From contig NZ_BTTW01000008.1 of NCBI RefSeq assembly GCF_036245865.1, forward strand, positions 96,396 through 160,395: a stretch of 64,000 bases of DNA. The letters run 5' to 3'. Numbering within the stretch: the first letter of the stretch is position 1; each line of letters begins with the position of its first letter. The notes below the pieces were generated by a model. It made no database searches. It saw only the letters and a program-made list of their open reading frames with translations, and was not told the origin of the DNA. Origin of the DNA: Corallococcus caeni (GTDB lineage Bacteria > Myxococcota > Myxococcia > Myxococcales > Myxococcaceae). A program made the position numbers and the translations under genes. This document shows, piece after piece, positions 19,313 to 37,609 of this stretch.

Positions 19313-19338
19313 AGCCCGGCGTGAAGTCCTGAAATGAA

Positions 19339-19380: not shown

Positions 19381-19388
19381 TTCCGCGC

Positions 19389-19844
19389 CTAGTTGCCTTC
19401 GCGCACGCCGATGGCGAGCTGCGCGAGGCCGGCCTTCTTCGCCAGCTCCATCACCTGCACCACGGTGCCGTGGGAGACGCCTTCGTCCGCCTGCACGATG
19501 ACCACGGTGTCGGGGTTCTGGTTCTTCGCGGTCTCGAAGGCCTGCTTCAATTCGGCCTCCGCGACGACGTTGCCCGCGAGCATGAAGCGGCCGTCCGCCA
19601 GCACCGCCACGGACAGGTCCGTGGTGCGCGCGGTGACGTCCGCGGCGCCGCCCTTGGGCAGGTTCACCTTGAGGCCCGCCTTGGCGCCGCCCCCCGGGCC
19701 CTGCTGGGTGATGACCGAGCTGGTCACCATGAAGATGATGAGCAGCACGAGCATCACGTCCGTCAGCGGCGTGATGTTGATCTCCGCGAAGCCCGCGCCC
19801 TCCAGCTCGTCGTCGCCCGAGCCGGGCGTCTTTCCCATGGCCAT
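19389..19844 (-). CDS. ExbD/TolR-family biopolymer transport protein
   Basis: Single N-terminal TM helix and a conserved ExbD periplasmic domain. Confidence 0.8.
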   Translation of the reverse strand: MAMGKTPGSGDDELEGAGFAEINITPLTDVMLVLLIIFMVTSSVITQQGPGGGAKAGLKVNLPKGGAADVTARTTDLSVAVLADGRFMLAGNVVAEAELKQAFETAKNQNPDTVVIVQADEGVSHGTVVQVMELAKKAGLAQLAIGVREGN

Positions 19845-19859
19845 GGTGGGCGTCTCTCC

Positions 19860-20588
19860 TTACGAGGCGGGCTGCGGATCCGGCCGCGGGGCCGGGGGCG
19901 TGGCGCTCTCGCGCGAGGGCGTGGCTTCCGGCAGGGGCCCGCCGGCGGCGCGCTCCTTGAGGGTCTCCACGAACTCGTCGCCCAGGAGGCGCAGCTCCAC
20001 CAGCACCCGGGACAGCCGGGCCTGGAAGTAGTTGTAGAAGACCATCGCCTGCACGGCGACGAGGATGCCCACGGCGGTGGCGACGAGCGCTTCCGAGATG
20101 CCCGTCATCACGGCCGCGGAGCCGCCGGTGCCGCCGGCCTCCACGTCCACGCCCAGGTCCTTGAACGAGCGCATGATGCCGGCCACGGTGCCGAAGAGGC
20201 CCACGAAGGGCGTCGTCGAACCGATGGTGGCGAGCAGCCACAGGTTGCGCCGCAGCTTCAAACCCACCTGGGCGCGCTCGCGCTCCACGGCGGACTCGAT
20301 GCCGTTGCCCCCGGTGGAGCGGGAGCGCTCCCAGCGGTCGAAGCCGGCGAGGAAGATGTCGGCCGCCACGGCGTCGGAGCGCTCGGCGGCGGTGCGGGCG
20401 GCGGCCACGTCCCCCCGGAGGAGGTGCTTCTGGACGATCTCCCCCAGGTTGCGGGAGCGCTCGCTCACGCCCCAGAGGGCGATGAGCCGCTCGATGGCCA
20501 CGCCCAGGGCCACCACGGAGGCGCCCAGGAGGAGGGCGAGGGTGACGCCGCCCAGGCGAAGGTAATGAAGTAGATCGTTCAGGCTCAT
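19860..20588 (-). CDS. MotA/TolQ/ExbB-family proton channel
   Basis: Three TM helices and the conserved TolQ C-terminal region (LATIGSTTPFVGLFGTVAGIM). Confidence 0.8.
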   Translation of the reverse strand: MSLNDLLHYLRLGGVTLALLLGASVVALGVAIERLIALWGVSERSRNLGEIVQKHLLRGDVAAARTAAERSDAVAADIFLAGFDRWERSRSTGGNGIESAVERERAQVGLKLRRNLWLLATIGSTTPFVGLFGTVAGIMRSFKDLGVDVEAGGTGGSAAVMTGISEALVATAVGILVAVQAMVFYNYFQARLSRVLVELRLLGDEFVETLKERAAGGPLPEATPSRESATPPAPRPDPQPAS

Positions 20589-20603
20589 GATGGATGACCG
20601 GGC

Positions 20604-21461
20604 ATGCGGCCCTGGCTCACACTAGGACATATGAACCGCGCAGCCGCCGCAATCTTCCTGGCCCTCCTCTGTTCGGCCTGCCCCAAACGCCTCGAGTTCG
20701 GTCCGGAAGGCCGCATCGAGGATGCCCAGACGCTCTACCAGCACGTGCGCGAGCGGCAGGCGCAGGTCGTGAACCTGGAGGGCGACGCCAAGCTGCACGT
20801 CGACTCGCCCCAGGGCAGCGGCACCCTCTCCACGTTCCTCTCCATCACCCGCCCGGGCTTCATCCACCTGGAGACGTACGACTTCTTCAACCGCCCGGTG
20901 GCCTCGCTCGTCTCCAACGGAGAGCGCTTCGGCGTCTACCAGGCGGGGGAGAACACGTACCTCCAGGGCCCGGCCAGCGCGGAGAACGTGTCCCGCTTCC
21001 TGCCTGTCGTCCTGCCGAGCGAGGAGCTGGTGGCGGTGATGCTGGGCCAGGTCCCCCTCCTGCCTCCGGAGTCCATGACCCTGGAGCTGGATGAGAAGGA
21101 GCGGGTGTACGTGCTGAAGCTCCAGCGGGGCCCCGCGACACAGACACTCCGCGTGGACCCGAAGCACCTGCGCGTGGTGAAGAGCGAGGTCCGGGGCGTG
21201 CCGGGCTATGACCTGGCGTTCGAGGACTTCGAGCAGCGCGGCGACCAGCTCTTCCCCGGCAAGGTGCACCTCATCGCCTCCACGGCGGACACGAAGCTGG
21301 ACCTGAAGTACACGGACATCCGCCTCAACGGCCGCCCGGACCTGACGCTCTATGAGCTGGTGGCGCCCGAGGGGGCCAGGGTGGTGGACGTCGACGCACG
21401 GGGCCAGGAAGTCCGCTCGGGGGGCACGGTGTCGCCCGCGCCCCCCGCGCCGGGTTCCTGA
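20604..21461 (+). CDS. Lipoprotein, DUF4292/LolB-like
   Basis: Lipobox LLCSAC and a LolA/LolB-like beta-fold profile. The first gene of the long co-directional block. Confidence 0.5.
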   Translation: MRPWLTLGHMNRAAAAIFLALLCSACPKRLEFGPEGRIEDAQTLYQHVRERQAQVVNLEGDAKLHVDSPQGSGTLSTFLSITRPGFIHLETYDFFNRPVASLVSNGERFGVYQAGENTYLQGPASAENVSRFLPVVLPSEELVAVMLGQVPLLPPESMTLELDEKERVYVLKLQRGPATQTLRVDPKHLRVVKSEVRGVPGYDLAFEDFEQRGDQLFPGKVHLIASTADTKLDLKYTDIRLNGRPDLTLYELVAPEGARVVDVDARGQEVRSGGTVSPAPPAPGS

Positions 21462-21520
21462 GCTTCCAGGCGTCGAAAGACAGCGCCCCGGCGCAAACCG
21501 GGTACTATGGCGCGCACGAC

Positions 21521-22273
21521 ATGGCACAGATCAAGCTCGGAGAACTGCTGATCAAGGCGAACGTCCTGCAGGAGAGCCAGCTCAAGGCGGCGCTCGCCGA
21601 GCAGGCCAAGTGGGGCGGGAAGCTGGGCGAGATCCTCGTCCGGATGAACCTCGTGTCCGAGGACATCCTCGTGCGCGCCCTGTCGAAGCAGCTCGGCATG
21701 CCGGCGGTGAACCTGGACGCCGTGCAGATGGTGCCGCCGCACGTGAAGTCCAAGATCCCGGCGCAGACCGCGCGCGACTTCTCCGTGGTGCCGCTGCAGC
21801 TGCGCGACGACGGCAAGACGCTCGTGGTCGCCATGTCGGACCCGCTCAACGTGCGGGTGCTGGACGAGCTGCGGGCCCTGTCCAAGTGCCGCATCGTGGC
21901 CAACGTGGCGGGGCGCACCTCCGTGGCGCGGGCGTTCGCGCGCCTCTACGAGGAGACGGCGGAGCTGGAGGACGCGGACACCAACTTCAAGGTGGTGGAC
22001 GCGCAGGGCCGCACCGTCGTGAAGAACCTGAAGGACCTGGACCCGGCCGCCGCCGTCGCCATGTCCCCCAAGCCCGCCGCCGCCGCTCCGCCCCGGCCAC
22101 CGCCCCCCGCGGAGGCCCCCCGTCAGGCCGCCTCCGGCAGCCCCGCGGAGCTGCTCAAGAGCGTGGAGGAGGTCCAGCGCAAGGAGGTCGCGGCGCTGAA
22201 GGCCATGGTGGAGCTGCTCATTGAGAAGGGTGTTTTCTCCCGCGAGGAATACCTCGCCAAGGTCAAGCGGTAG
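21521..22273 (+). CDS. Stand-alone MshEN / T2SS-E N-terminal (GSPII_E_N) domain protein
   Basis: Two tandem 24-residue MshEN-type motifs (KLGELLIKANVLQESQLKAALAEQ; KLGEILVRMNLVSEDILVRALSKQ). No ATPase domain. Confidence 0.7.
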   Translation: MAQIKLGELLIKANVLQESQLKAALAEQAKWGGKLGEILVRMNLVSEDILVRALSKQLGMPAVNLDAVQMVPPHVKSKIPAQTARDFSVVPLQLRDDGKTLVVAMSDPLNVRVLDELRALSKCRIVANVAGRTSVARAFARLYEETAELEDADTNFKVVDAQGRTVVKNLKDLDPAAAVAMSPKPAAAAPPRPPPPAEAPRQAASGSPAELLKSVEEVQRKEVAALKAMVELLIEKGVFSREEYLAKVKR

Positions 22274-22282
22274 CCCCCGGCC

Positions 22283-23271
22283 ATGCGCAAGAAGATTGGT
22301 GAACTCCTCGTCCAGGCCGGAGTGGTGACGGACGAGCAGGTGAAGCAGGCCCTTGCCTCCGGACGTCGCGGCCAGGGCCGCAAGCTGGGCGAGGTGCTGG
22401 TGTCCATGGGCCTGTGCACGGGCCGGGACATCGCGCGGGCGCTGGCGGCGCAGCACGAGCTGCCCTTCGTGGAGATCCCCGAGTACATCCCGCACGGGGT
22501 GTCCTCGCTGGTGTCCATGGACTTCCAGAGCGAGCACCGGGTGCTCCTCTTCGCTTCGGAGCAGGACGGCCGCAGCGAGAAGATCCACGTCGCGGTGGAG
22601 GACCCGGGCAACCTGATGCTGGTGGACGAGCTGCGCTTCCAGCTGCGCAAGCAGCTCAAGGTATTCGTCGCCGCGTCGGATGACATGGAGCAGGCGCTCG
22701 CGCGCGGCCGGGGCGAGCCCCTGGACATCGTGGAGGCTGAACCGATGGACATGGACGAGGACGATTCGCCGGACATCCTGCCGTCGCCGCCTTCCGCCTC
22801 CGCGCGGCCCCCGGCGCCGCCGCGCCCGCCCGCGCCGCCGGCGCTGGACTGGGACCTGCCTCCACCGCCGCCGCACGAGTCGGGCGTCGACGGCGCGGAG
22901 GTGCTGGAAGACATCCTGGGCTCCAAGCCCCGCCCCAAGGCCCCGCGTCCCCCGCCGCCGCCCGCCGCGGCCCGGCCGCCGCCCCCTCCGCCCTCCGAGC
23001 CCGAGGACCCGAGCAAGCCGCGCGTGCCGGTGGTGCTCTTCGGCGGCGCCGCGCAGGGCGCGAAGCCGTCCATGGCGCTCACGCCCACGCCGGACTTCTC
23101 CGAGGAGGACCTGGCGGTGCTGGACGACATCGACCGCATCTCGCGCGGCGAGGAGGCCAGCCTGGACACGGAGAAGGTGAAGCCCGCGCGCATGGTCGCG
23201 AGCCTCATCCGCCTGCTCATCCGCAAGGGGCTCATCCAGGAGGCGGAGTTCCTGGAGGAGCTGGCCCAGAA

Positions 23272-23275
<4 letters not shown>
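22283..23275 (+). CDS. Second stand-alone MshEN / T2SS-E N-terminal domain protein with a Pro-rich linker
   Basis: Motifs [24 protein letters not shown] and [24 protein letters not shown]. The C-terminal helix resembles that of the first MshEN gene. Confidence 0.7.
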
Positions 23276-24305
<1,030 letters not shown>

Positions 24306-24309
<4 letters not shown>

Positions 24310-25361
24310 GCGAACCCCTGGTCCAGGTGCGCGACCTGAAGGTGCACTTCCCGGTGAAGGGCGGCCTGCTGGGGCGCACGCGCGGCACGGTGCGCGCGGT
24401 GGACGGCGTGTCCTTCGACGTCGCCCGGGGCGAGACGCTGGGCCTGGTGGGGGAGAGCGGCTGCGGCAAGAGCACCCTGGGACGCGCGGTGCTGCGCCTC
24501 ATCGACCCGACCTCCGGCTCCATCCGCGTGGCCGGGCGCGAGCTGACCGGCCTGTCTCAGCGCGAGCTGCGGCCGCTGCGCCGGCAGATGCAGCTCGTCT
24601 TCCAGGACCCGTACGCGTCGCTCAACCCGCGCATGACGGTGGGGGACATCCTCGCGGAGCCCTTCGCCATCCATGGCCTCGCGAAGGGCAGGGCGCGCGA
24701 GGACGAGGTGCTGGCGCTGCTCGACGCCATGGGGCTGCCCCGCGAGGCGCGGCACCGCTACCCGCACGAGTTCTCCGGCGGCCAGCGTCAGCGCATCGGC
24801 ATTGCACGTGCCATCGCGTTGCGTCCGGACCTGGTGGTGGCGGACGAGCCCATCAGCGCGCTGGACGTCTCCATCCAGGCGCAGATCGTCAACCTGCTGG
24901 TGGACCTGCAGCGCGAGCGCAGGCTCACATACGTCTTCATCGCGCACGACCTCAAGATCGTGGAGTACGTGTCCTCGCGCGTGGCGGTGATGTACCTGGG
25001 CCGCATCGTGGAGGTCGCGCCGTCGCGGGCGCTGTACGCCGGGCCTCGCCACCCGTACACGCAGGCCCTGCTGTCCGCGGTGCCGGTGCCGGATCCGGAG
25101 CGTCCCCGCGCGCGACTGCTCCTGCCGGGAGAGCCGCCCTCGCCGCTGTCGCCGCCGACCGGCTGCGCGTTCCACCCGCGCTGCCCCCATGCGATGGAGC
25201 GCTGCCGGCGCGAGTCGCCGCCGCTGTATCCGCTGGGCGGAGGCCACGCCGCGGCGTGCTTCCTGGCGGAAGGGGACTCGCGGGAAGTGCAGGACGGGAC
25301 CGCTGTTTCCGCGTCCGGAGGAGGCGCCGGTGTTCTGGCTCAGCCATCATCACGCGGATGA
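24306..25361 (+). CDS. ABC transporter ATP-binding protein, OppF/DppF type
   Basis: Walker A GESGCGKS, signature FSGGQRQR, and a C-terminal Cys motif. ATGA overlap with the upstream gene. Confidence 0.85.
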
Positions 25362-25737
25362 GTACAACCGCACGTACGTGCTCGCGGGCGTGCGCGTGTG
25401 CGCGCGGTGCCTGGGGACGTACCCGGTGCTCGCCGCCGTGTTCCTGGGGTTGTTCGCGCTGAAGGCGCCGCTCCGGTGGGAGTGGGACGTGCCGGTGGTG
25501 CTGGCCCTCACGCTGCCCGCGCTGGTGGACTGGGCGGTGGGACGCTTCCGGCCCGCTTCCGGTTCCAACGCGCTGCGCACGCTGACGGGCGTCCTCCTGG
25601 GAGTGGGGCTTGGCCGCTCGCTGTACGTGCACGTGCAGCGCCCGCTGCCGGCGGTGCTGCTGGCGCAGGCACTTCTGGTGACAGGGGTGGCGGTCCCTGT
25701 CATTCTCGCCACTTACCGGCGGCCACGGCCGGAATAG
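25330..25737 (+). CDS. DUF2085 family small membrane protein
   Basis: Motif [10 protein letters not shown] and three or four TM helices. GTG preceded by GGAGGAGG. It overlaps the 3' end of the oppF-like gene by 32 nt. Confidence 0.55.
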
Positions 25738-25768
25738 ACCTTTCGCGCACGGCTGTCCGTTACAGGCC

Positions 25769-26449
25769 GTGGGCGGTGAAGGGGATGGCACCCGTGGCTT
25801 CATGGGCACTGGGGGAAGTTTGGCACCCGAAACCTCAGACGAGCAGCTGATGCTCGCCTTCCAGGCGGGAGACGCGCGCGCGTTCGAAGCGTTGGTGCGC
25901 AAGCACCGCGCGCCGGTGTTCAACTTCATCCTGCGCTTCGTGGGGCAGCGGGCACGGGCGGAGGACGTGCTGCAGGAGACGTGGCTCAAGGTGGTCCGCA
26001 GCGCCCGGGAATACGAGCCCAAGGCCCGGTTCACGACCTGGCTGTACACCATCGCGAGGAACCTCTGCGTGGACAGCACGCGCAAAGAGAGCTACCGCCA
26101 GGCGACGTCCCTGGAAGCCCCCACGGCGGGTGCCGACGGGGACGAGGGACGTCCGCTGGGCGAGGGGCTGCCGGATGCCGGCGCCAGTCCGGAGCGCGGG
26201 GCGCACAACGCGCGCCTGCGGCCCCTGCTGGAGCGCGCCCTGTCGGGCCTGCCGGAGGAGCAGCGCGAGGTGTTCGTGCTGCGGGAGTACAGCGGCATCC
26301 CGTTCAAGGAGATCGCCGAGGTGACGGGCGTGTCCGAGAACACGGTGAAGAGCCGGATGCGCTACGCGCTGGAGGGCCTGCGCCGCCGCCTGGGAGAGCT
26401 GGGCGTGGATGGCGACCTGTCGGAGGATGGAAGGACGGTGGCGGGATGA
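25769..26449 (+). CDS. ECF (RpoE-like) sigma-70 family sigma factor
   Basis: Region 2 (AFEALVRKH...TWLYTIARN) and region 4 (REYSGIPFKEIAEVTGVSENTVKSR). The true start may be the internal Met at ~25802. Confidence 0.85.
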   Translation: MGGEGDGTRGFMGTGGSLAPETSDEQLMLAFQAGDARAFEALVRKHRAPVFNFILRFVGQRARAEDVLQETWLKVVRSAREYEPKARFTTWLYTIARNLCVDSTRKESYRQATSLEAPTAGADGDEGRPLGEGLPDAGASPERGAHNARLRPLLERALSGLPEEQREVFVLREYSGIPFKEIAEVTGVSENTVKSRMRYALEGLRRRLGELGVDGDLSEDGRTVAG

Positions 26450-27876
26450 GTGCCCAGAATGCCCACGCGCACGAGGACCGGCTCCTCGACTTCGCCTACG
26501 GCGAGCTGCCCGCGTCGGAGGCCCGGTCGCTGGAGCAGCACGTCCAGGGCTGCGCGCGCTGCACGAAGGCGCTGGCGGACATCCGCGGCGTGCGGACCAC
26601 CATGGCGCAGCTGTCGTCGGAGCCCGCGCCGGACGCGGGCCTGGAGTCGCTGCTCGCGTACGCGCAGCAGTCCGCGCGCCGCGCCGCCGCGGGGCCCGAG
26701 CCGAAGCCCTCGCGCTGGCGCCGCTGGCTCCTGCCCGCGGTGGGCCTGGCCACGGTGAGCACCTTCGGCCTCCTGACGCTGACGGTCAGCGAGAACCTCC
26801 ACCTGGAGCCGAACCTGACGCAGAAGGCCTCCAGCCCGACGATGGAGGCGGCGAAGCAGAAGGCGGAGTATCCCGCCTCGCGCGCCGCGATGCCCCCGCC
26901 CGCGCCTTCGAGCGCGCCCCTGGCGACGGCCGCGCCCGAGCCGATGGAGCAGCTCGCGGACCGGAAGCAGGGCGACGCGCAGGCAGAGCTCAAGGGCGCG
27001 GCCGGCGCCCGTCCGTCGGACTGGATGAACGCGGGCAGCGGTGGCGCGCTGCTGGAGCGGCGTCGCGCGGACGCCGACGCACCGAAGAAGAAGATGGCCA
27101 AGGCCGTCCGGGACGCGGACGAGTTCGCGGCGCTCGAGCCGGCCCCGGCCGCCGCGGTCGCGCAGGAGATGTCTCCGCCTCCGAAGGAAGAGGAGGCCGA
27201 CAGCGCCCTCGCCATGAAGGACGCCCCCGCGCCGCGGCGCGCACCCGGTGCAAGCAGCGACAAGGCGAAGGTCGCGAAGAACGACTCCCTGCGCCTGGGC
27301 GGTGCGTCTTATGGCCGTGGGCTCGCCCTGGACGATGAAGCCGAAGGCATGGCCGCGGGCGCGGCCCCGCCGCCTCCTCCCGTGGCCTCCGCGCCCATGG
27401 CCGAGGCCGTGGCTCCCGTCGCCACGGGCGCGCTGGGCCGCCAGCCCGCGCCCGCGAACACGACGCTCTCAGCCCCCGAACAGCGGAAGGAGTCCACCCG
27501 CGCGGAGGCCGCGAAGCCCAGGCCCGTGGAGAAGTCCGCCTCCTCCGAAGATGCGATGACGTCACGCGACCTGTCCGCCCAGGCCCAGGCCGCCGCGAGC
27601 CAGGGGGACCGCGCCCGGGAAGCACAGCTGCTGCGCGCCGCACTCGCCGCCGGAGCCACGGGCAGCGAGCGGTTGGGGCTGCTCTCACGGCTCTGCGAGT
27701 CGGAGTCCGTCCAGGGCCGGAGCCAGGAAGCCGCCACCGTCTGCGGGCAGATCATCACCGAGGCCCCCGGCTCCAGCGCGGCCCAGCTGGCCCAGCGCCG
27801 CCTGCGTCAGGCCTCGCCTCCCGCCGCCCCCGCGTCGGCTCCCGCCAAGGTCGCCCCCTCCACGCCCGCGCAGTAG
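26446..27876 (+). CDS. Anti-sigma factor (zf-HC2) with one TM helix and a long Ala/Pro-rich periplasmic region
   Basis: HxxxCxxC motif (HVQGCARC). ATGA overlap with the sigma gene. TM helix WLLPAVGLATVSTFGLLTL. Confidence 0.7.
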   Translation: MSAQNAHAHEDRLLDFAYGELPASEARSLEQHVQGCARCTKALADIRGVRTTMAQLSSEPAPDAGLESLLAYAQQSARRAAAGPEPKPSRWRRWLLPAVGLATVSTFGLLTLTVSENLHLEPNLTQKASSPTMEAAKQKAEYPASRAAMPPPAPSSAPLATAAPEPMEQLADRKQGDAQAELKGAAGARPSDWMNAGSGGALLERRRADADAPKKKMAKAVRDADEFAALEPAPAAAVAQEMSPPPKEEEADSALAMKDAPAPRRAPGASSDKAKVAKNDSLRLGGASYGRGLALDDEAEGMAAGAAPPPPPVASAPMAEAVAPVATGALGRQPAPANTTLSAPEQRKESTRAEAAKPRPVEKSASSEDAMTSRDLSAQAQAAASQGDRAREAQLLRAALAAGATGSERLGLLSRLCESESVQGRSQEAATVCGQIITEAPGSSAAQLAQRRLRQASPPAAPASAPAKVAPSTPAQ

Positions 27877-27894
27877 GGGAGGGGGGCAGTCCAC

Positions 27895-28188
27895 ATGACC
27901 GATGCGTGGAAGGCCCGGGTCCTGGATAATGGGGCCATGAGGTCGGACGTGCACGCTCCCCCCGTGAACAGCCCCCGGAAGTCTCCGCCCCGCCGGATCC
28001 GCCGTGGCCAGGCCATGGTGGAGTACTCGATGATCAACTGGGTGTTGATCGTCGGGCTCGTCGTCGGCGCCACGGTGAAGATCCGCTGGAACGAGGACAA
28101 GCAGACCAACGTCATCGACCTGTTCCTCGAGGCGTACCAGATTTATTACGACTCGTTCTACTTCGTGCTGAACCTGCCGTTCCCCTGA
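27895..28188 (+). CDS. Flp/Fap-family type IVb prepilin
   Basis: Class III signal-peptide motif G/QAMVEY followed by a hydrophobic helix (SMINWVLIVGLVVGATV). Strong Shine-Dalgarno-like sequence. The leader is unusually long; an internal start at ~27937 is possible. Confidence 0.65.
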   Translation: MTDAWKARVLDNGAMRSDVHAPPVNSPRKSPPRRIRRGQAMVEYSMINWVLIVGLVVGATVKIRWNEDKQTNVIDLFLEAYQIYYDSFYFVLNLPFP

Positions 28189-28288
28189 ACGGGACGGAGG
28201 AAGGCCGCGGATCAGGCCCGTGTGTCGCGCCGTCCTCCCCACCCGGCGGACAGGCGCCGCGAGCCCCGGGTGTCCCGGGATTCCGCTT

Positions 28289-28341
28289 TGTCACGAGAGG
28301 TGGTTTTGACACCTGCTCTGGGGCATGGCTAACATCTTGCC
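28289..28341 (+). promoter_or_regulatory. Candidate sigma54 (-24/-12) promoter TGGCTAACATCTTGC with an adjacent inverted repeat TGTCA-N13-TGACA, upstream of cpaB
   Basis: The GG and GC elements have the canonical 10-nt spacing (TGGC at 28326-28329, TTGC at 28337-28340). The inverted repeat spans 28289-28311. cpaB ATG is at 28426. Confidence 0.4.
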
Positions 28342-28425
28342 CCGTTCGCGCCCTGGCATCGCCCCCTCGTCCAAAGCTGTCCTGCCGCCACGACGGCGCC
28401 CCACCGTTCTGGAGGACCTAGAACC

Positions 28426-29244
28426 ATGTTGAAGGGTAAGACCCCGCTCGTCGTCGCACTGGTGCTCGGTTTGCTCGCCGGCATCGTGGCCTACTCGGCC
28501 ATCAAGAAGAAGGAATCGGATGTGCGCCGCGGGTGGAACCTGGTGCCCGTGGTGGTGGCGGGCCAGGACATGCCCGAGGGGTCGGTCATCACGTACGAGA
28601 TGATCTCCCAGCGCTCCGTGCCCGAGCAGTTCGTCACCTCGTCGGTGGTGAAGCCGGACTCCGCGAACTACATCGTGAACCAGAAGGTGCTGGTGGCGCT
28701 GCAGGCCGGCGACCCCATCCTCTGGAGCCAGTTCGAGACGACGAAGGCCGCCGAGCGCCTGTCCACGAAGGTGCAGAAGAAGGCGCGCGCCATCACCATC
28801 GAGGCGAAGCAGACCACGTCCGTGGGCGGGTGGATCCGCCCCAACGACCACGTGGACATCATCGGCACGTTCCGCGATCCGCAGACGGATGAGAGCGTCG
28901 CCGTGACGCTGCTGCAGAACATCATCGTGGTCGCGACGGGCAAGATCACCGGCACCACGAACATCAACCTCATCCCGGAGAACCAGCGCGAGTACAACAA
29001 CGTCTCGCTGATGGTGCTGCCGGAAGAGGCGGAGATCCTGGTGCTGGCGGCGGAGCTGGGGCAGCTGACGCTGTCGCTGCGCAACGAGGACGACGTGGAC
29101 CTCATCGAGGAGCGCGGCCGCGCCACCATCAGCACGCTGCTGTCCGGCGAGCGCACCCGCGTGCTGGAGCAGAAGCGCCGGGAGATCATCCAGATCATCA
29201 AGGGCAGTGGCAGCGGCGAGAAGGCCTCGGCCGGCTCCCCGTAG
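28426..29244 (+). CDS. CpaB/RcpC-family Flp pilus assembly protein
   Basis: N-terminal TM helix, SAF-like domain, and an RcpC C-terminal domain. GGAGGA Shine-Dalgarno-like sequence. Confidence 0.75.
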   Translation: MLKGKTPLVVALVLGLLAGIVAYSAIKKKESDVRRGWNLVPVVVAGQDMPEGSVITYEMISQRSVPEQFVTSSVVKPDSANYIVNQKVLVALQAGDPILWSQFETTKAAERLSTKVQKKARAITIEAKQTTSVGGWIRPNDHVDIIGTFRDPQTDESVAVTLLQNIIVVATGKITGTTNINLIPENQREYNNVSLMVLPEEAEILVLAAELGQLTLSLRNEDDVDLIEERGRATISTLLSGERTRVLEQKRREIIQIIKGSGSGEKASAGSP

Positions 29245-29320
29245 TCGTCGCGCGCGGGGCTGCTTCCCAAGCTGAAGCGGCCCTGCCGACCCCTCCCTCA
29301 TCCCCCGGGGATTCGCGCCC

Positions 29321-30166
29321 ATGCTCGCAGGTATCGTCCTCCTCCTCGTCACCGGCTCGGTGTTCTTCTTCAGCCTGGTGATCTTCAGCGTCCTGTCGAA
29401 GGCGTACGAGCAGTACCAGGAGCGGTACGTCGCCAAGTCGATGAACGACTTGAGCGACATGTTCCTCTTCATCGACGCGCGGCAGATGTTGATCCTCAAC
29501 ATCGCCTGCATGTGCCTCCTGGGCATCCTCAGCTACATCATCTTCAACCCCATCCTGGCGGTGCTGGCGACCATCTTCGGCTTCTTCCTGCCGATGCTGC
29601 TCGTGAAGCACTACCGCAAGCGCCGCATCAAGAAGTTCAACGTGCAGCTGGTGGACGCGCTGCAGGCCATGGCCAACGCGTTCAAGGCGGGCCTCACGTT
29701 CCCCCAGGCCATCGAGCACGTGGCGCGCGAGGCGATGCCGCCCCTGTCCCAGGAGTTCGGCCTCTTCGTGAAGGAAGTGAAGCTGGGCGTGCCCCTGGAA
29801 GAGGCGCTCGTCAACATGGGCAAGCGCGTGGGCAGCGACGACCTGGAGCTGGTGGTGGTGTCCACCAACATCGCGCGTCAGCTGGGCGGCAACATGGCGG
29901 AGATGTTCGAGACCATCTCCACGGTGATTCGCGAGCGCTTCCGTCTGGAAGGCAAGATCGACGCGTTGACCTCCCAGGGCAAGCTCCAGGGGTGGATCGT
30001 CGCGGCCATGCCGGCGGTGCTGGGCATGGTGCTCAACTACATGCGTCCGGACCTGATGGAGCCGATGATGAACCACATCTTCGGCTACATCCTGGTGACC
30101 CTGATCGCCATCATGGAGATCATGGGCATCCTCATCATCCGGCGCATCGTCAACATCGACATCTGA
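29321..30166 (+). CDS. TadB-like inner-membrane platform protein (T2SSF domain)
   Basis: T2SS F-type domain flanked by TM helices. Confidence 0.75.
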   Translation: MLAGIVLLLVTGSVFFFSLVIFSVLSKAYEQYQERYVAKSMNDLSDMFLFIDARQMLILNIACMCLLGILSYIIFNPILAVLATIFGFFLPMLLVKHYRKRRIKKFNVQLVDALQAMANAFKAGLTFPQAIEHVAREAMPPLSQEFGLFVKEVKLGVPLEEALVNMGKRVGSDDLELVVVSTNIARQLGGNMAEMFETISTVIRERFRLEGKIDALTSQGKLQGWIVAAMPAVLGMVLNYMRPDLMEPMMNHIFGYILVTLIAIMEIMGILIIRRIVNIDI

Positions 30167-30179
30167 AACGAGGCGCACC

Positions 30180-31070
30180 GTGCAGGAAGTCCTGACATTT
30201 CTGCTGATGGGCGGCTCGGCACTGCTGACCGCGGGCGCGGTGGCGTTCCTGGGCATCGGCCTGTACTCCAACGTCCTGGAGCGCTTCCTGTCGGAAGTCC
30301 GGGACGAGTCCGCGGGCGGCGTGAAGGGCGCGGGCTCCGTCGCCATCCGCAAGCTGGGCGCGATGAACCGGCGCTTCATGTGGCCGGGCTACGAGTCCAA
30401 GACGCGCCGCAAGCTCATCAAGGCGGGCGAGCCGTCGCAGTACAAGCCCGAGGACATCATGGCGCTGCAGGAGATCAGCGCCTTCTTCGCCCTGCTGGCC
30501 GGCCTGTTCGTCGTCAACGGCATCGGGATGAACCTGGCCTGGTCACTGCTGGTGATGCTGCTGGGCCTGTTCTATCCGCTCATCTGGTTGAACGATCAGG
30601 TGAAGCGCCGTCACCTGGCCATCAGCCGCGCGCTTCCGTACAACCTGGACCTGCTGACGCTGTCGGTGGAAGCGGGCATGGACTTCACGGGCGCGCTGGC
30701 GAAGGTGGTGGAGAAGGGCCGCCAGGGCCCGCTGCGCGAGGAGCTGCAGCTGGTGCTCAAGCAGCTCAAGATGGGCAAGACGCGTGAGGAGGGCCTCAAG
30801 AGCATGATCGTGCGCGTGGACCTGCCGTCCCTGACGACCTTCGTCACGGCGCTGATCCAGGCGGACAAGATGGGCACGAGCCTGGGCAAGGTGCTGCGCA
30901 TCCAGTCCACGCAGATGCGCATCGACCGCACGCAGCGCGCGGAGAAGCTGGCCGGCGAGGCCCCGGTGAAGATGCTGTTCCCGCTCATCGCCTGCATCTT
31001 CCCGACGGTGTTCATGGTGCTCTTCGGGCCCATCGTGTTCCAGTTCATGTTCGGCAACGTCGGGGGCTAG
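30180..31070 (+). CDS. TadC-like inner-membrane platform protein (T2SSF domain)
   Basis: T2SS F-type domain (LPYNLDLLTLSVEAGMDFTGAL) with N- and C-terminal TM helices. Confidence 0.75.
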   Translation: MQEVLTFLLMGGSALLTAGAVAFLGIGLYSNVLERFLSEVRDESAGGVKGAGSVAIRKLGAMNRRFMWPGYESKTRRKLIKAGEPSQYKPEDIMALQEISAFFALLAGLFVVNGIGMNLAWSLLVMLLGLFYPLIWLNDQVKRRHLAISRALPYNLDLLTLSVEAGMDFTGALAKVVEKGRQGPLREELQLVLKQLKMGKTREEGLKSMIVRVDLPSLTTFVTALIQADKMGTSLGKVLRIQSTQMRIDRTQRAEKLAGEAPVKMLFPLIACIFPTVFMVLFGPIVFQFMFGNVGG

Positions 31071-31143
31071 TCCTCTGCCCATCCTGCTCACCATCACCCA
31101 GGGGCTCCAGGTCGGACGGGAGCTCGCCTTCGAGCAGGCCGAG

Positions 31144-34080
31144 GTGAAGATCGGCCGGACCTCGGAGAACGACCTGGTGCTGCATGACCACGGTGTCTCC
31201 CGGCGTCATGCCCGCATCACGGCGAGGGATGGGCGCTACTTCGCCGAGGACGTCGGCAGCGCGAACGGCACGCAGCTGAACGGCCAGCCGCTGGGCGGCG
31301 AGAAGCAGCTGCGCGACGGCGACCGCATCACCGTCGGTCCGGTGGAGTTCACGTTCGTCTGGGTGGCGCCGGAGGATGACGACGACGTCACCCGGCCCAT
31401 CCGGCGCGCGCTCGCGCCGCCGCATGCGCGGGTGTCGCCGCAGGGCGTGGAGCAGGCTTCGCTCGCGGAGATCGAAGCGGCGCCCACGAGCTACCAGCAG
31501 TCGATGCCCGCGATGGCGCGGCCCGCGTCCCTGCCGCGCCCCGGGATGGCCGTGCCCGCCGCGAAGGGTGGGGCGGCTGTTCCCGCGATGCCGGTGATGC
31601 CGGTGATGCCGAGCGCTACGCCGAAGCGGCCCTCCGCGCCGGATCTGCCAGCGGTCGGTGCCGCTCCGGCCAGGACTCCCCCGGGGCCTCCCGTGTTGGG
31701 AGCTGCGGCATCGGGAGCGGCCGTTCCGAGCAGGGCTCCCGCTGGACCTCCCGTGCTGGGGGCTTCCGCGCCCGGAGGTCAGGTGGCCGGAGCTCCGGCC
31801 AAGGCTCCCGGGGCGAGCGCTTCCGCGTCGGGCAGATCCTCCGCGCCGGGCTTGCCCGCGGTGGGGGCGTCCCCGGCGAACAAGGCCGGCGCGACGCCTC
31901 CAGCCCCAGGGGCTTCCCCCTCGGGAAGAGCCTCGGCGCCGGGCTTGCCCGCCGTCGGTGCCTCGGGTTCAGGCCGGTCGTCCGTACCGGGCGCGACCTC
32001 CATGCCCGCGGGGGTTCCCGAGCCCGCGCACCCGACGGCGCGTGAGCTTCCCGTGGTGGGCGCCCCTGCCTCGGTGGAAGCTGCTCCAGCGCCTGAGAAG
32101 GCCGCGGCCCCAGGCCCCGGAGAGCCGGCCGCTTCCGCGAAGCGCAAGGCTGGCGCGAACCTCCCCGGTGTCGGCGCGCCCGCGCTGAACCGTCCCGAGC
32201 TGGGTCGTGGCGCGGCACGTGCGTCCGCGGCTCCCGCGTCCAGCCTGCCGTTGATGACGCCGCCGGGGTTCATGGCTCCGCCTCCGCCGGCACGGCCTCC
32301 TGTCGCCCCGCCTCCCGTGGACCTCGCTCCGGTGATGCCGGACGAACCCGAGGAGCGCACGCTGATGGCGATCTCCACCGTGGATTCGCCCGTGCCCACC
32401 TCCACGCTGGCCCCCGTGCTGCCCGTCCCGGACCTGGAGGAGCCCGAGGAGCGCACGCTGATGGCGATCTCCACCGTGGATTCGCCCGTGCCCGCCTCCA
32501 CGCTGGCCCCCGTGCTGCCCGTCCCGGACCTGGAGGAGCCCGAGGAGCACACGCTGATGGCGATTCCGGCGACCCCGGAAGCGCCGCCCCGGGTGGAAGA
32601 CGCGCCGCCGTTGGACGCTTCATCCGCGCTGCCCGTGCCGACGATGGAGGAGCCCGAGGAGCGGACCGTCCTCGACCTCCGGCCCATCACCCCGGTCAGC
32701 CCGCTGGTGGCCAGGCCGCTGCGCTTTGGCGTCGCGGTGGCGACTCCCCCCGCGCCGGGCGCCCCCGAACCGGCGACCTTCGTCGGCCAGGACGACGCCA
32801 TCCCCGCGGACGCTCCGGAGGAGACCCGGGCATCCCCCACCTTCGCGGGCCAGAACGCTCCCGCTGCTCCCGCTTTGGCGCCTCCGCCCGCCTGGAGTCC
32901 CCCCGTCCCGCCGCCTTCGCCGGAGCCGGAGCCGGTCACGCTCGTGGGCCGGAACCGGTCCGCGTCTCCGCCGAAGCTCGACGCCGGACCGATGCCCGGC
33001 GAGGCGCCGCTGCTGGCTCCCGCGCTCGTCCCGGAAGGGGAGGGCAACGCCACCCAGCCCCACCCTCCCGGACTGGAAGCCTCCGCGATCGAGCCCGGGC
33101 CCAAGGGGCCGGTGACGGTCGTCGCGAAGGTCGAACCGTCGTCCGCCGCCGACAAGGCGCGCAAGCGGCGTCAGCTGGGCAAGACGCTCAAGGGCCAGTT
33201 CCTCCTCTTCTGGCAGCGCCAGTCGTTGCCCCGGCGCATTGGCTTCGCGTCGCTGGCGGGGCTGGGCGCGCTGGCGCTGGTGACGCTGCTCGTGGCGCTC
33301 GTGGTGCCCTCGGCGATCCGGCTCCCCGGCCGCGAACCCTACAAGCTGGGCATGGATCCGGTGCCGGACTCCTTTGGCCTGGGCGAGGGCGTGCGGTGGG
33401 TGCACGCCGACGACAAGCTCTTCGACTTCCGCTTCGTGTCCCCCACGCGCGCGGTGGCCGTGCTGCACTACCAGGCCAGCAACATCGCCCGGGACGAGGT
33501 CAACCTGTCCCTCAACGGGGTGTCCCTGGGGTGGGTGCCCCCGGACACGGCGCAGACGGCCGAGCGCGAGCTGGAGCAGGTCCTGCCCCCCAGCCTCCTG
33601 CGCCGCAACGCCAACAACCAGCTGCTCTTCGACAACGCCCTCAACCCGCCCGGCCGCGACCCCTGGCGCATCTGGAACCTGCGCCTGGAAGTCATCCCGG
33701 TGCCCGAGCTGCCGCCGGATCAGCTGGTCGCTTCCGCCCGGGAGTCCGCCAAGACCGGGGCCCGCTTCTACGAGCTGAAGGACGTGGGCGCGGAGAACCT
33801 GTTCAAGGCGTGGCGGGAGTACCGCGCCGCGTGGATCACCCTGGAAGCGCTCGACGAAAAGCCGGAGCTGTACGACGACGTCCGGGAGCGGATCGCCCAG
33901 ATTTCAACGGAGCTGGACCACCGCTGCGGGCAGTTGATGATGCAATTCCAGCGGGCGGTTCAGTTCCGCAGCCGACGGGATGCGGTCGCGACCCTCGAAG
34001 ACGTGCGGAGACGCTTCCCTACCGCCGAGCATCGCTGCCACAATCTGGCGCTGGAAAAAGCCTATGAGCACGAGCTTTAG
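31144..34080 (+). CDS. FHA-domain protein with a Pro/Ala-rich repeat region, one TM helix and a periplasmic C-terminal domain; the true start is probably upstream (~31075)
   Basis: FHA core (IGRTSENDLVLHDHGVSRRHARI...GSANGTQLNG). Internal near-perfect 96-nt tandem repeats. TM helix FASLAGLGALALVTLLVALVV. Confidence 0.75.
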   Translation: MKIGRTSENDLVLHDHGVSRRHARITARDGRYFAEDVGSANGTQLNGQPLGGEKQLRDGDRITVGPVEFTFVWVAPEDDDDVTRPIRRALAPPHARVSPQGVEQASLAEIEAAPTSYQQSMPAMARPASLPRPGMAVPAAKGGAAVPAMPVMPVMPSATPKRPSAPDLPAVGAAPARTPPGPPVLGAAASGAAVPSRAPAGPPVLGASAPGGQVAGAPAKAPGASASASGRSSAPGLPAVGASPANKAGATPPAPGASPSGRASAPGLPAVGASGSGRSSVPGATSMPAGVPEPAHPTARELPVVGAPASVEAAPAPEKAAAPGPGEPAASAKRKAGANLPGVGAPALNRPELGRGAARASAAPASSLPLMTPPGFMAPPPPARPPVAPPPVDLAPVMPDEPEERTLMAISTVDSPVPTSTLAPVLPVPDLEEPEERTLMAISTVDSPVPASTLAPVLPVPDLEEPEEHTLMAIPATPEAPPRVEDAPPLDASSALPVPTMEEPEERTVLDLRPITPVSPLVARPLRFGVAVATPPAPGAPEPATFVGQDDAIPADAPEETRASPTFAGQNAPAAPALAPPPAWSPPVPPPSPEPEPVTLVGRNRSASPPKLDAGPMPGEAPLLAPALVPEGEGNATQPHPPGLEASAIEPGPKGPVTVVAKVEPSSAADKARKRRQLGKTLKGQFLLFWQRQSLPRRIGFASLAGLGALALVTLLVALVVPSAIRLPGREPYKLGMDPVPDSFGLGEGVRWVHADDKLFDFRFVSPTRAVAVLHYQASNIARDEVNLSLNGVSLGWVPPDTAQTAERELEQVLPPSLLRRNANNQLLFDNALNPPGRDPWRIWNLRLEVIPVPELPPDQLVASARESAKTGARFYELKDVGAENLFKAWREYRAAWITLEALDEKPELYDDVRERIAQISTELDHRCGQLMMQFQRAVQFRSRRDAVATLEDVRRRFPTAEHRCHNLALEKAYEHEL
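32351..32575 (+). repeat. Near-perfect 96-nt (32-aa) in-frame tandem repeat, ~2.3 copies, inside the FHA gene
   Basis: Unit 1 (32351-32446) and unit 2 (32447-32542) are each 96 nt. They differ at one nucleotide, plus a partial third copy. Encodes EERTLMAISTVDSPVP(T/A)STLAPVLPVPDLEEP. Confidence 0.8.
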
Positions 34081-34107
34081 GGCCCGTGCCCCCCTCAGCA
34101 GGACGCG

Positions 34108-35856
34108 GTGACCGCCATGTCGAACGCACCACCCCCCGCCCGCCGACGGCCTACATCCGGTACGCCCTCTTCCGGGACCGGACAGCGCGCGCCGGTCCGC
34201 CGGTCCACCGCCGGTGCCGCCGCGGCCCGCCCCGCGAAGCTCGTCGTCATCGCCGGTCCCATGGAGGGTGAGGAGTTCGCGCTCGCCGACCTCGAGTACA
34301 CGGTCGGCCGCGCCACGGACAACCCCATCTGCATCCAGGACACGTCGGTCTCCCGCAAGCACGTGACGCTGCGCAAGGAGTCCGCCGGCTGGATGGTCAG
34401 CGACATGGGCTCCGGCAACGGCACCATCGTCAACGGCGAGCCCATCACCGAGGAGACGCTCCTCGCCAACGGGGACGTCATCACGCTGGGCGACTCGGAG
34501 CTGCGTTACGAGGACACCGCCAACAGCACCGCCAAGGTGCAGGCCCCCTCCGGCTCCCGGCCCCGTCCGTCCACGGCGGCGGGGCGCGGTCCCACGGCCG
34601 TGCCCTCGCGTCCTTCCCGCGAGGGACGTGCGCGCCCGCAGACGGCGCGGGCCGCGGCCGCCGCGGAGCTCACGCCGGAGATGCAGCGCAAGCGCATGCG
34701 GATGAAGCTCGCGGGCGCCGCCGTGCTGGTGCTGCTCTTCGCGGGCCTGGGCGTCGCGCGCTCGCGCATGCGGCACCAGCAGGAGGAGCAGGGCCGCATC
34801 GAGGCGGAGCAGCGCCAGTACCGCGAGCAGCTGGGCGGCCTCTTCCAGGAGGCCAAGAACCTGGTGCGCGAGGGCCAGTGGCAGCAGGCCAAGGCGAAGC
34901 TGGAGGAGCTCCACGCGCAGGCGCCGGACTACCCCGGCGTGGAGGACTACCTCAAGGCCGCGGAGCGGGAGATCCCCAACCAGAACCACCTGAGCACGGC
35001 CCAGGCGGCGCTGGACAAGGGGGAGCTCGCCAGCGCGAAGGCGTCCATCGCGAAGGTGAGCGCCGACACGCAGCTCTACGAGCAGCTGAAGACGGCGCGC
35101 AAGAACCTGACGGACGCCGCCGACAAGCGCACGAAGGAAGCCAAGCAGCTGCTGGACACCCGCCAGCTGGAGAACGTGCAGAAGGCCAAGGCCATCACCG
35201 ACGACGTGCTCGCGACCTTCCCGGAGCACCGCGACGGCAAGCTCGTGAACGACGATGCCGTGCGCGTCATCGCGGACCTGACCCGTCCGGATCCGGTGCG
35301 CGTGGCCGCGGCGCCCAAGCCGTGGGAGCCCGCCGTGGACCGCTTCCGCGACGGTGACACGTCCGGCGCGGTGGCCATCCTCAACGCGTGCGCGGCCAAG
35401 ACGCCGCAGTGCAAGCAGCTGATGGGGCAGGTGACGGAGTTCGGCAACCTCTACAAGAAGCTGGAGGAGCTGGACGCCAAGGGCCTCACCCGGTTGCTCG
35501 CGCTGGACAAGGACATCACCGACGGGCGCGGCAGCAAGATGGGCCGCAACGCGGGCACCCGCGCGTCGACCATCTATTACAAGAGCGCCGCGGGCGCGAA
35601 GGCCGCCGGCCAGTGGTCGCGCGCCATGGAGTTCGCCCGCCGCGCGCTCCAGGCGGACCCCAACCACACGGGCGCCGCCAACATCGTCAACGACCTCAAG
35701 GGCAAGGCGAAGGACCTGTACATGCAGGCCTACTCCATCAAGGACTCCAGCCCGGAGGACGCGCTGCCCAAGTTCCGCGACGTCGTCACGATGACGCCGC
35801 CCGACGACGAGCTGCACGGCAAGGCCCAGGGCTGGGTCGAGAAGCTGTCGCGATGA
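34108..35856 (+). CDS. Second FHA-domain protein with a TM helix and TPR/coiled-coil-like periplasmic region
   Basis: FHA core (VGRATDNPICIQDTSVSRKHVTLRK...GSGNGTIVNG). TM helix LAGAAVLVLLFAGLGV. Its stop overlaps the xseA start (ATGA). Confidence 0.75.
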   Translation: MTAMSNAPPPARRRPTSGTPSSGTGQRAPVRRSTAGAAAARPAKLVVIAGPMEGEEFALADLEYTVGRATDNPICIQDTSVSRKHVTLRKESAGWMVSDMGSGNGTIVNGEPITEETLLANGDVITLGDSELRYEDTANSTAKVQAPSGSRPRPSTAAGRGPTAVPSRPSREGRARPQTARAAAAAELTPEMQRKRMRMKLAGAAVLVLLFAGLGVARSRMRHQQEEQGRIEAEQRQYREQLGGLFQEAKNLVREGQWQQAKAKLEELHAQAPDYPGVEDYLKAAEREIPNQNHLSTAQAALDKGELASAKASIAKVSADTQLYEQLKTARKNLTDAADKRTKEAKQLLDTRQLENVQKAKAITDDVLATFPEHRDGKLVNDDAVRVIADLTRPDPVRVAAAPKPWEPAVDRFRDGDTSGAVAILNACAAKTPQCKQLMGQVTEFGNLYKKLEELDAKGLTRLLALDKDITDGRGSKMGRNAGTRASTIYYKSAAGAKAAGQWSRAMEFARRALQADPNHTGAANIVNDLKGKAKDLYMQAYSIKDSSPEDALPKFRDVVTMTPPDDELHGKAQGWVEKLSR

Positions 35857-37568: not shown

Positions 37569-37609
37569 CGGGCCACCCTCTACATTCCGCGCCCCGCTCG
37601 GGGAGGTGG

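Follow-up and report, generated by a model that had tools for sequence, protein, structure and literature searches.

A conserved gene block of Corallococcus caeni joins a putative sensing operon to the core of Kil cluster II in several separately promoted units

A run of 14 consecutive plus-strand genes, at positions 20604 to 35856 of a 64-kb stretch of Corallococcus caeni DNA (contig NZ_BTTW01000008.1; ~71% G+C, the whole stretch being referred to below as the window), is made up of several separately promoted units and is not one operon. This follows from the presence of three conserved internal promoters, ahead of the genes for the cyclic di-GMP (c-di-GMP)-receptor-like protein MshEN1, for an extracytoplasmic function (ECF) sigma factor and for KilB, two of which fall on mapped start sites of Myxococcus xanthus. 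We consider it somewhat better than an even bet (probability of about 0.55) that the block represents two gene sets already catalogued in M. xanthus, placed end to end with a LolB-like lipoprotein gene in front, and that the left operon is a sensing module whose link to the Kil system of contact-dependent prey killing is regulatory. By orthology, the first set corresponds to operon 24 (MXAN_4667-4661) and the second to the core of Kil cluster II (MXAN_4655, 4652-4648).

Raw lists of open reading frames (ORFs) from this DNA are full of shadow frames, and genes were called from the phase of third-position GC (GC3), inspection of start codons, and Pfam and NCBIfam scans. Called in this way, the 14 genes (g1 to g14) run unbroken from 20604 to 35856, and neither GC3 phase nor the domain scans gave a credible minus-strand gene between these positions, so that the single-strand run from a DUF4292 gene to a second FHA gene, described in an earlier note on this DNA, was borne out. 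The stop/start overlaps that it listed are all present (GTGA at 23272, ATGA at 24306, 32 nt at 25330, ATGA at 26446, and ATGA at 35853), and the same-strand run does continue, as proposed, into housekeeping genes, through xseA, xseB, a response-regulator gene, ispA, dxs and tlyA. The gaps had been called small, but one of them, between g9 and kilB, is large (237 bp, 28189-28425). Two further corrections had to be made: the response-regulator gene between xseB and ispA was missing from the earlier gene list, and the first FHA gene, which had been started at a GTG at 31144, begins at a CTG at 31075, 4 nt past the kilH stop.

For comparison, loci of relatives were collected by pattern scans, using KilB as the seed in one genome per species (80 loci, then searched by tblastn with the window proteins) and DUF2085 as the seed in metagenomes (64 more loci).

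Gene content of the two sets

The left set (g2 to g8) opens with two MshEN genes. MshEN1 (g2, 21521-22273, plus strand like all genes of the block; MXAN_4667 orthologue) consists of a stand-alone MshEN domain (Pfam PF05157, 56.9 bits), a Pro-rich linker and a C-terminal helix, while MshEN2 (g3, 22283-23275; MXAN_4666 orthologue; PF05157, 43.1 bits) is more degenerate. Against NCBIfam NF053729, a 53-residue c-di-GMP motif with a cut-off of 38 bits, the two proteins score 64.8 and 56.2 bits, respectively, and their closest matches in the Protein Data Bank (PDB) are the N-terminal domains of PilF, PilB and MshE. The tandem 24-residue motifs are common to them and to the MshEN domain of MshE, PilB and PilF (Wang et al. 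2016, PMC5013675); unlike these proteins, g2 and g3 stand alone, without an ATPase domain. Both depart from the strict published motif, RLGxx(L/V/I)(L/V/I)xxG(L/V/I)(L/V/I)xxxxLxxxLxxQ repeated twice with a 5-residue spacer. Protein g2 keeps the 24+5+24 layout, but in each half Lys replaces Arg and Asn replaces the turn Gly. In g3 the Gln of motif I is replaced by Gly, one hydrophobic position is taken by Cys, and the spacer measures 6 residues. Geobacter PilB (PDB) likewise carries Asn at the turn position. Judged by these residues, MshEN1 could plausibly bind c-di-GMP, binding by MshEN2 is doubtful, and "receptor-like" is the right wording for the pair.

Next come genes for an OppD/DppD-like ABC ATPase (g4, 23272-24309; MXAN_4665 orthologue) and an OppF/DppF-like one (g5, 24306-25361; MXAN_4664 orthologue), both with ABC_tran and oligo_HPY domains. 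The top NCBIfam matches of g4 are DppD and OppD, under their equivalog cut-offs, and g5 reaches 415 bits against PRK11308 (cut-off 408), with ~80% identity among the crown genera. The oligo_HPY tails of both keep a four-Cys pattern (CAFRDRC..C....C at 24150-24300 and CAFHPRC..C....C at 25170-25290); in some OppD/DppD proteins this pattern binds an Fe-S cluster. Overlapping oppF by 32 nt (31 in M. xanthus), g6 (25330-25737; MXAN_4663 orthologue) encodes a DUF2085 membrane protein of ~135 aa (Pfam PF09858), in which the motifs FWLSHH, CARCLG and DWAxGRF are conserved across an alignment of 38 orthologues. DUF2085 proteins of the deep clade possess an extra conserved Cys (RCY) beside the SHH and CxxC motifs, which is gone in g6. 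A DUF2085 gene induced by methyl jasmonate has been reported from an Archangium strain; no tie between it and this orthologue could be established, and it carries no weight here. The set closes with the ECF sigma gene (g7, 25769-26449; MXAN_4662 orthologue; Sigma70_r2 and r4_2; 269 bits against NCBIfam PRK12513, cut-off 206) and a zf-HC2 anti-sigma gene joined to it by an ATGA overlap (g8, 26446-27876; MXAN_4661 orthologue; PF13490). The true start of g7 is probably a TTG at 25820, as distant homologues align from residue 18, just after a GAGGA-like Shine-Dalgarno sequence.

These seven genes are the same as those of operon 24 of M. xanthus (MXAN_4667-4661), predicted as one operon under a criterion of shared strand and intergenic distances of no more than 50 bp, as part of a survey of genes associated with c-di-GMP (Kuzmich et al. 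2022 mBio, PMC8844925). Gene lengths agree between the two species; the spacings are -3/-36/-31/+44/-3 in M. xanthus and -4/-4/-32/+31/-4 here, and the start sites of operon 24, at MshEN1 and inside the 3' end of the DUF2085 gene, coincide with conserved promoter boxes of the window. That paper (PMC8844925) drew no link to Kil, to an Opp ancestry or to an ECF-type promoter.

Kil cluster II of M. xanthus comprises MXAN_4648-4661 (Seef et al. 2021 eLife, PMC8460266, supplementary table): MXAN_4648 is an FHA-TPR protein, 4649 an FHA protein, 4650 KilH, 4651 KilG and 4652 KilB; MXAN_4653-4660 are KilK, KilL, KilN, KilM and unknowns; and MXAN_4661 is a "putative zinc-finger". The Kil genetics of contact-dependent prey killing come only from that species (PMC8460266). 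In the window, g9 (27895-28188), a KilK orthologue of 97 aa, would encode the Flp-type "adapter" minor pilin, the role of KilK in M. xanthus (Herrou et al. 2025 Nat Commun, PMC12075869). In its alignment with deep-clade copies and with the 76-aa genes from Stigmatella and Myxococcus, RGQAM(V/L)EYS is invariant; the start of g9 may instead lie at 27937. KilB (g10, 28426-29244; CpaB/RcpC family, Pfam SAF and RcpC; MXAN_4652 orthologue) is 100% identical to that of C. exercitus and C. interemptor and 93% to that of M. xanthus. Two T2SSF genes follow, which by domain, synteny and the eLife supplement are kilG (g11, 29321-30166; TadB/CpaG-like platform; MXAN_4651 orthologue) and kilH (g12, 30180-31070; TadC/CpaH-like platform; MXAN_4650 orthologue). 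KilB, then two T2SSF genes, then FHA proteins are the marks of Kil cluster II, and the KilB-T2SSF-T2SSF order is also found in M. xanthus AM003 and more than 70 relatives. A second KilB paralogue, 75-79% identical and without kilG/H, was seen in some metagenome-assembled genomes (MAGs; L056 8337-10810, also L075); the copy in L056 comes directly after an ECF sigma gene distinct from g7 (27% identity) and has a Ser/Thr kinase gene nearby.

The first FHA gene (g13, 31075-34080; MXAN_4649 orthologue; FHA and Yop-YscD_cpl) encodes an FHA domain, a Pro/Ala-rich linker, a transmembrane segment and a C-terminal domain. Its start codon varies between ATG, GTG, TTG and CTG among lineages at a homologous position, CTG being used in Corallococcus, Citreicoccus, Pyxidicoccus, Hyalangium and most Archangium, where it is a conserved non-canonical start that probably relies on translational coupling; automatic annotation would cut into the FHA domain. 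No gene of this type was detected in L057-L079 and several related metagenome loci, which have a lone FHA-TPR gene after kilH. The FHA-TPR gene of the window (g14, 34108-35856; FHA, Yop-YscD_cpl and TPR; MXAN_4648 orthologue) overlaps the xseA start by its stop (ATGA at 35853), and xseA comes next in all loci with enough flank.

The window thus shares with the published cluster (PMC8460266, PMC12075869) the order anti-sigma, KilK, KilB, KilG, KilH, FHA, FHA-TPR, with xseA downstream in both. In contrast, the published cluster ends at the anti-sigma gene (at the ECF sigma gene in a 2026 preprint) and does not take in DUF2085, OppDF, MshEN or DUF4292. The two also differ between the anti-sigma gene and kilB, where Stigmatella and Myxococcus have Tip4 (TadE-TadG-TadE, that is KilM4/N4/L4) and unnamed genes, while no TadE/TadG-type gene was found there in the window or in 12 compact Corallococcus-type loci (L001-L011 and the MAG locus L068). 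Comparison of window positions 27876-28426 with L081 12469-19236 and L082 12695-19669 shows that in Corallococcus only kilK and the 237-bp, promoter-bearing spacer remain. For M. xanthus Tip4, a killing activity independent of the type III secretion system (T3SS) has been reported.

Promoters and transcription units

The first internal promoter, P_mshEN1 (21503-21516, plus strand), has a -10 box TACTAT (21503-21508) and a predicted start at ~21516, 5 nt before the ATG. In M. xanthus, Cappable-seq placed a start site 5 nt upstream of MXAN_4667, which was very strong at 0 h, weak at 6 h and otherwise unreported (Kuzmich et al. 2022, PMC8844925). A -10 box is found 12-14 nt before the MshEN1 ATG in most lineages, including those in which oppC adjoins, with the variants TAGAAT, TAGAGT and TACAAT; none was clear in L081, L098 and L118.

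The second, P1 of the sigma gene (25678-25715, plus strand), consists of gTGACA (25678-25683), a 17-nt spacer and CATTCT (25701-25706), which is followed by ACTTAC, with a start at ~A25715. The box lies in the last 60 nt of the DUF2085 gene and is conserved as DNA, be it coding (Corallococcus, Myxococcus) or non-coding after an insertion (Archangium, Cystobacter). If the geometry is the same in DK1622, the box matches in position a start site of M. xanthus that lies 66 nt upstream of MXAN_4662, 22 nt inside MXAN_4663, and that was detected at each of the five time points between 0 and 24 h (PMC8844925). In Archangium and Cystobacter the spacer between the DUF2085 and ECF genes extends over 150-700 bp (L022 and L025, ~240-900; L051-L053, ~930-1030), with an apparent minus-strand ORF in L022 and L025; the old DUF2085 3' end persists in these genera as a non-coding copy (palindrome TGACAG...CTGTCA and TCTCGCCACTTAC) joined to the sigma promoter.

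About 20 nt downstream of the P1 box lies a bipartite motif, TAGACC-N17-CGTT (25735-25761, plus strand), a candidate second promoter dependent on the ECF factor. In the general form TAGAYC-N16/17-CGTT, in which the spacer varies in sequence and keeps a length of 16-17 nt, a single copy is present in the window, with 0.09 expected, and 46 of the first 80 loci have exactly one each. All loci and the window together yielded 93 instances, located just upstream of the ECF gene where checked. Its position and form make it probably an autoregulated ECF-type promoter. A second motif of this type before kilK, Tip4, kilB or MshEN1 was looked for with a position weight matrix in 146 loci and the window, and no second strong site was found in the 17 loci whose top matches were inspected. 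As in known autoregulated ECF/zf-HC2 modules, sigma regions 2 and 4 are present, the sigma gene is translationally coupled to that of a single-pass zf-HC2 protein, and the upstream motif ends in CGTT; unlike in those modules, a basal promoter lies within the preceding DUF2085 gene, and the downstream genes on the same strand are Tad-like pilin genes. The anti-sigma gene is separated from kilK by only 18 nt, a gap in which the sigma70 promoter scan gave no match.

The third promoter, P_kilB (TTGACA-N18-TAACAT, 28306-28335, plus strand), is of sigma70 type and lies in the 237-bp spacer, ~90 nt upstream of kilB. It was the only sigma70-like match in the 19.2 kb from 19300 to 38500. Its hexamers are unchanged, with a variable spacer, in 46 of the 80 genome loci, and a variant TTGACA-N17/18-TA(G/C)CAT is present in most deep lineages examined.

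No convincing intrinsic terminator was found in the block, where four weak matches stand against 5.3 expected. Between kilK and kilB in particular, the consensus scan gave none and the fold of the 237-bp spacer was unexceptional (z = -0.9 against shuffled sequences). An Rfam search at gathering thresholds gave no known RNA within the block, neither a c-di-GMP riboswitch nor any other, and nothing at E <= 1 in 27800-28500 around the spacer. Since neither a terminator nor a known RNA element separates the units, read-through between them is possible.

The earlier note had argued for one or a few long transcripts. A few would fit operon 24 and the 20-gene operon, containing kilB/G/H, Tip4 and kilK, that a 2026 preprint predicts in M. 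xanthus; a single unit does not fit the three footprinted internal promoters, at two of which transcript mapping in M. xanthus has start sites. The units are also regulated differently, given that the MshEN1 and ECF start sites show the timing described above and that the kil genes are reported to be induced by starvation in M. xanthus (PMC8460266).

Synteny and the Opp ancestry of the ABC pair

Across the loci, tblastn revealed a conserved order, MshEN1-MshEN2-ABC-ABC-DUF2085-ECF-anti-sigma, then 0.3 to 8 kb of pilin/tip genes, then KilB-KilG-KilH-FHA-xseA-xseB. This order is conserved in ~140 related loci and holds in Corallococcus, Citreicoccus, Myxococcus, Pyxidicoccus, Stigmatella, Hyalangium, Archangium, Cystobacter and Vitiosangium, as well as in many MAGs and deep uncultured relatives, so that the association is no accident of this genome. 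Where at least 9 kb of left flank was available, the ECF gene was present in 46 of 53 loci; two of the seven others show the anti-sigma gene at the flank edge, one is a KilB paralogue locus, and in the remaining four a large insertion has likely pushed the ECF gene out of range. In the metagenomes, the ECF gene came next in 29 of the 31 loci with at least 1 kb of right flank, and kilB was reached in 7 of the 9 with at least 9.5 kb. DUF2085 relatives below ~50% identity (L138, L140, L145) have none of these neighbours. In protein searches with KilB and DUF2085, the best 120 matches listed were all at least 76-81% identical and gave no context beyond the family.

In the deeper-branching loci, an SBP_bac_5 binding-protein gene and two BPD_transp_1 permease genes lie just upstream of MshEN1, and a complete oppABC occupies this place in L057-L079, L083, L092, L101, L111 and L112. 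What looks like the ancestral layout is seen in L083 and L101: exbD-exbB on the minus strand, then DUF4292-oppA-oppB-oppC-MshEN1-MshEN2-oppD-oppF-DUF2085-ECF-anti-sigma-kilK-kilB-kilG-kilH-FHA-TPR-xseA-xseB (oppA and kilK matches were not detected in L101). Apart from the lack of oppABC, this layout recurs in the window, in Stigmatella aurantiaca and in a Myxococcus-like contig. Comparison of these sequences shows that the ABC pair represents the ATPases of an ancestral peptide importer of Opp/Dpp type, and that oppABC was lost in Corallococcus, Myxococcus and Stigmatella. Like Opp/Dpp importers, g4 and g5 have the ABC_tran and oligo_HPY architecture, and g5 passes PRK11308; unlike in such importers, SBP_bac_5 and BPD_transp_1 genes are missing from the window, two MshEN genes with their own promoter lie between the places of oppC and oppD, and DUF2085 is appended. 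No permease or binding-protein gene was found in the whole 64 kb. The description of the pair as transporter-less is accordingly correct for this locus and its close relatives, and does not apply to the sister lineages with oppABC at the same place.

We considered whether the orphan OppD and OppF are decaying, and rejected this. Both translations preserve the Walker A, signature and Walker B motifs, and their divergence is below that of the lineages that keep oppABC: ABC identity is ~80% at a KilB identity of 87.5% among genera without oppABC, against 54-58% at 82% among those with it. By this comparison, the orphan ATPases are shown to evolve no faster than in transporter-bearing lineages. 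The genes oppD and oppF are both absent in L095, L115 and L136, where MshEN2 runs straight into DUF2085 (L115 keeps the downstream kil genes, and the contigs of the other two stop before that region), and MshEN2 is absent in L119, L123 and L131. MshEN1, DUF2085, the ECF and anti-sigma genes and kilBGH were found wherever the retrieved sequence spanned their positions, DUF2085 being kept even in loci without oppDF.

As to the flanks, the block is bounded on the left by the divergent minus-strand genes exbB (19860-20588; MotA/ExbB family, Pfam PF01618, supported by GC3 phase) and, downstream of it, exbD (19389-19859; PF02472), a junction with DUF4292 that is kept in crown and deep lineages. A 406-aa plus-strand ORF at 19353-20573 was rejected as a shadow of these two genes. 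The LolB-like DUF4292 lipoprotein gene (g1, 20604-21461; PF14125; at the orthologue position of MXAN_4668) has an NCBIfam LolB1 match of 44 bits, under the 50-bit cut-off, and may alternatively start at an ATG at 20631. It is followed by a 59-bp gap with a promoter, MXAN_4668 lies outside operon 24 of M. xanthus, and g1 is probably a transcription unit of its own. The start codons of exbB and DUF4292 are 15 bp apart (20588-20604), so that the promoter of each must sit within the other gene, unless DUF4292 starts at the ATG at 20631. On the right, the response-regulator gene between xseB and ispA (37976-38365) is of the single-domain type and recurs in the loci of Corallococcus, Myxococcus and Archangium; the deep clade lacks it, and there xseB is immediately followed by ispA (L057 16376-17311). 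Farther away, a minus-strand gene ~6 kb upstream of the MshEN genes (13741-14862) encodes a response regulator with an HD-GYP-type HD domain, likely a c-di-GMP phosphodiesterase, and two tRNA genes with identical Rfam scores (59450-59521 and 59562-59633) lie 40 bp apart, far outside the block.

Nature of the link to Kil

In the reading that we favour, the left operon would act as a sensing module at the cytoplasmic membrane, with c-di-GMP through the MshEN proteins and, ancestrally, peptide import as its likely inputs, and with the ECF sigma/anti-sigma pair as its output. This pair would be transcribed from a basal sigma70-type promoter and from an ECF-type one that is probably autoregulated, and would read into kilK here and, in other genera, into the genes of the Tip4 minor pilins. 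The kilBGH-FHA genes, with what would be a strong sigma70-type promoter of their own, would be expressed independently, with possible read-through into xseAB. Since these genes would have their own promoter and the sigma pair would read into kilK or Tip4, any coupling to the pilus would be regulatory, through the supply of pilin and tip, and not structural. Reading of the sigma/anti-sigma pair into kilK seems the most plausible form of such a link; the KilB paralogue of L056, placed after an ECF sigma gene, lends it weak independent support.

Several observations weigh against this. Our literature search found no paper that discusses MXAN_4662-4667 in its text, nor an experiment linking them to predation. 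The TAGAYC-N16/17-CGTT motif is tied to the ECF sigma factor by position only, the M. xanthus data report no start site from it, and no second copy stands near any kil gene in the 17 loci inspected. The internal promoters are compatible with read-through, and in the preprint a single operon of 20 genes is predicted to span the Kil part. Every locus compared comes from the same family-level clade, the Kil systems of Bdellovibrio, Bradymonas and other Myxococcota lying outside it. Finally, xseAB, the response-regulator gene and, on the left, exbBD and an acyl-CoA dehydrogenase gene are neighbours as conserved as those of the block, and the adjacency may be inertia; with housekeeping neighbours equally syntenic, synteny alone is no proof of a functional unit at this depth.

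This last point leads to an alternative that is unlikely but deserves serious attention, namely that the left operon, composed of a c-di-GMP-influenced remnant of peptide uptake and a sigma pair that is unrelated and serves envelope stress, plays no part in Kil, and that the region has merely stayed unrearranged in the family. The conservation of xseA/xseB, ispA/dxs, exbBD and the acyl-CoA dehydrogenase as neighbours agrees with it, as do the separate promoters, the differing expression trends and the lack of a link between the left operon and Kil in the literature searched. However, the region has undergone many insertions and deletions (losses of oppABC, oppDF and MshEN2, an insertion of 7-8 kb with Tip4, and others that separate DUF2085 from the ECF gene), despite which the ECF/anti-sigma pair was never split from the pilin/kil genes; the anti-sigma gene abuts kilK, and the KilB paralogue, an independent case, is also preceded by an ECF sigma gene. 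The opposite proposal, which builds on the earlier note, is that of one functional unit on one or two long mRNAs, in which the MshEN proteins, the ABC pair and DUF2085 would be accessories of the Kil machine, for instance c-di-GMP-gated energising or assembly factors. The common strand, four stop/start overlaps, the conserved order, the predicted 20-gene operon and the constraint on the orphan OppDF speak for it. The Kil ATPase KilF has no MshEN domain (PMC8460266), and stand-alone MshEN proteins could, by our own inference, supply the c-di-GMP input. We nevertheless judge it distinctly unlikely. Three conserved internal promoters, two with mapped start sites, divide the block; the MshEN1 start site is reported only at 0 h (strong) and 6 h (weak), whereas the kil genes are reported to be induced by starvation; and the ABC pair is clearly of peptide-importer descent. 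The absence of oppDF in three loci, one of which keeps its kil genes, and of MshEN2 in three others bears on it directly: as Opp parts were repeatedly lost while the Kil genes stayed, these parts are not obligatory in the pilus machine.

It is highly improbable that OppD, OppF and DUF2085 form a new membrane ATPase complex, with DUF2085 in place of OppBC, that signals to the single-pass anti-sigma factor or processes it. The translational overlap of oppF and DUF2085 in both species, the retention of OppDF under constraint after the loss of oppABC, and the constant position of DUF2085 immediately before the sigma gene would suit such a complex. Against it, DUF2085 occurs both with a complete OppABCDF and without any ABC ATPase, hence independently of them; the short protein shows, on our own reading of the 38-orthologue alignment, no EAA-type coupling loop; and genes for OppBC may exist elsewhere in the genome.

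Returning to the sensing module with a regulatory link, we also put forward a bolder version of it, speculative and on balance unlikely, in which the core MshEN1-(MshEN2)-DUF2085-ECF-anti-sigma, derived from a peptide-import operon, would be the missing "upstream signalling cascade" of Kil. At the inner membrane, this core would combine c-di-GMP with a cue from the envelope or from prey (a peptide), the released ECF sigma factor would determine which adapter and tip pilins are produced (kilK, Tip4 and possibly those of the other tip clusters), and OppDF would have been reused as signalling ATPases, no longer as motors of transport.

Relative to the literature searched, the joining of the two gene sets, the Opp ancestry with its stepwise decay, the conserved core, the promoter footprints and the CTG start are new; the Kil system itself and the left operon, as a predicted operon of M. 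xanthus, were already known, and the locus described here is a compact, Tip4-less form. Should the link to Kil be inertia, the locus would simply be a compact, Tip4-less orthologue of a known system. It also provides an example of an ABC importer operon that decays stepwise, with constraint on the ATPase genes outlasting the loss of the permeases. The discoverers of Kil proposed that the sensor by which Myxococcus-type predators detect prey contact and start Kil assembly might be encoded by one of the uncharacterised genes surrounding the kil clusters (PMC8460266). The present analysis offers a list of candidates for prey-contact signalling, made up of the ECF sigma factor, the anti-sigma factor, DUF2085 and the two MshEN proteins, together with precise promoter positions and the indication that OppDF and oppABC are dispensable in nature.

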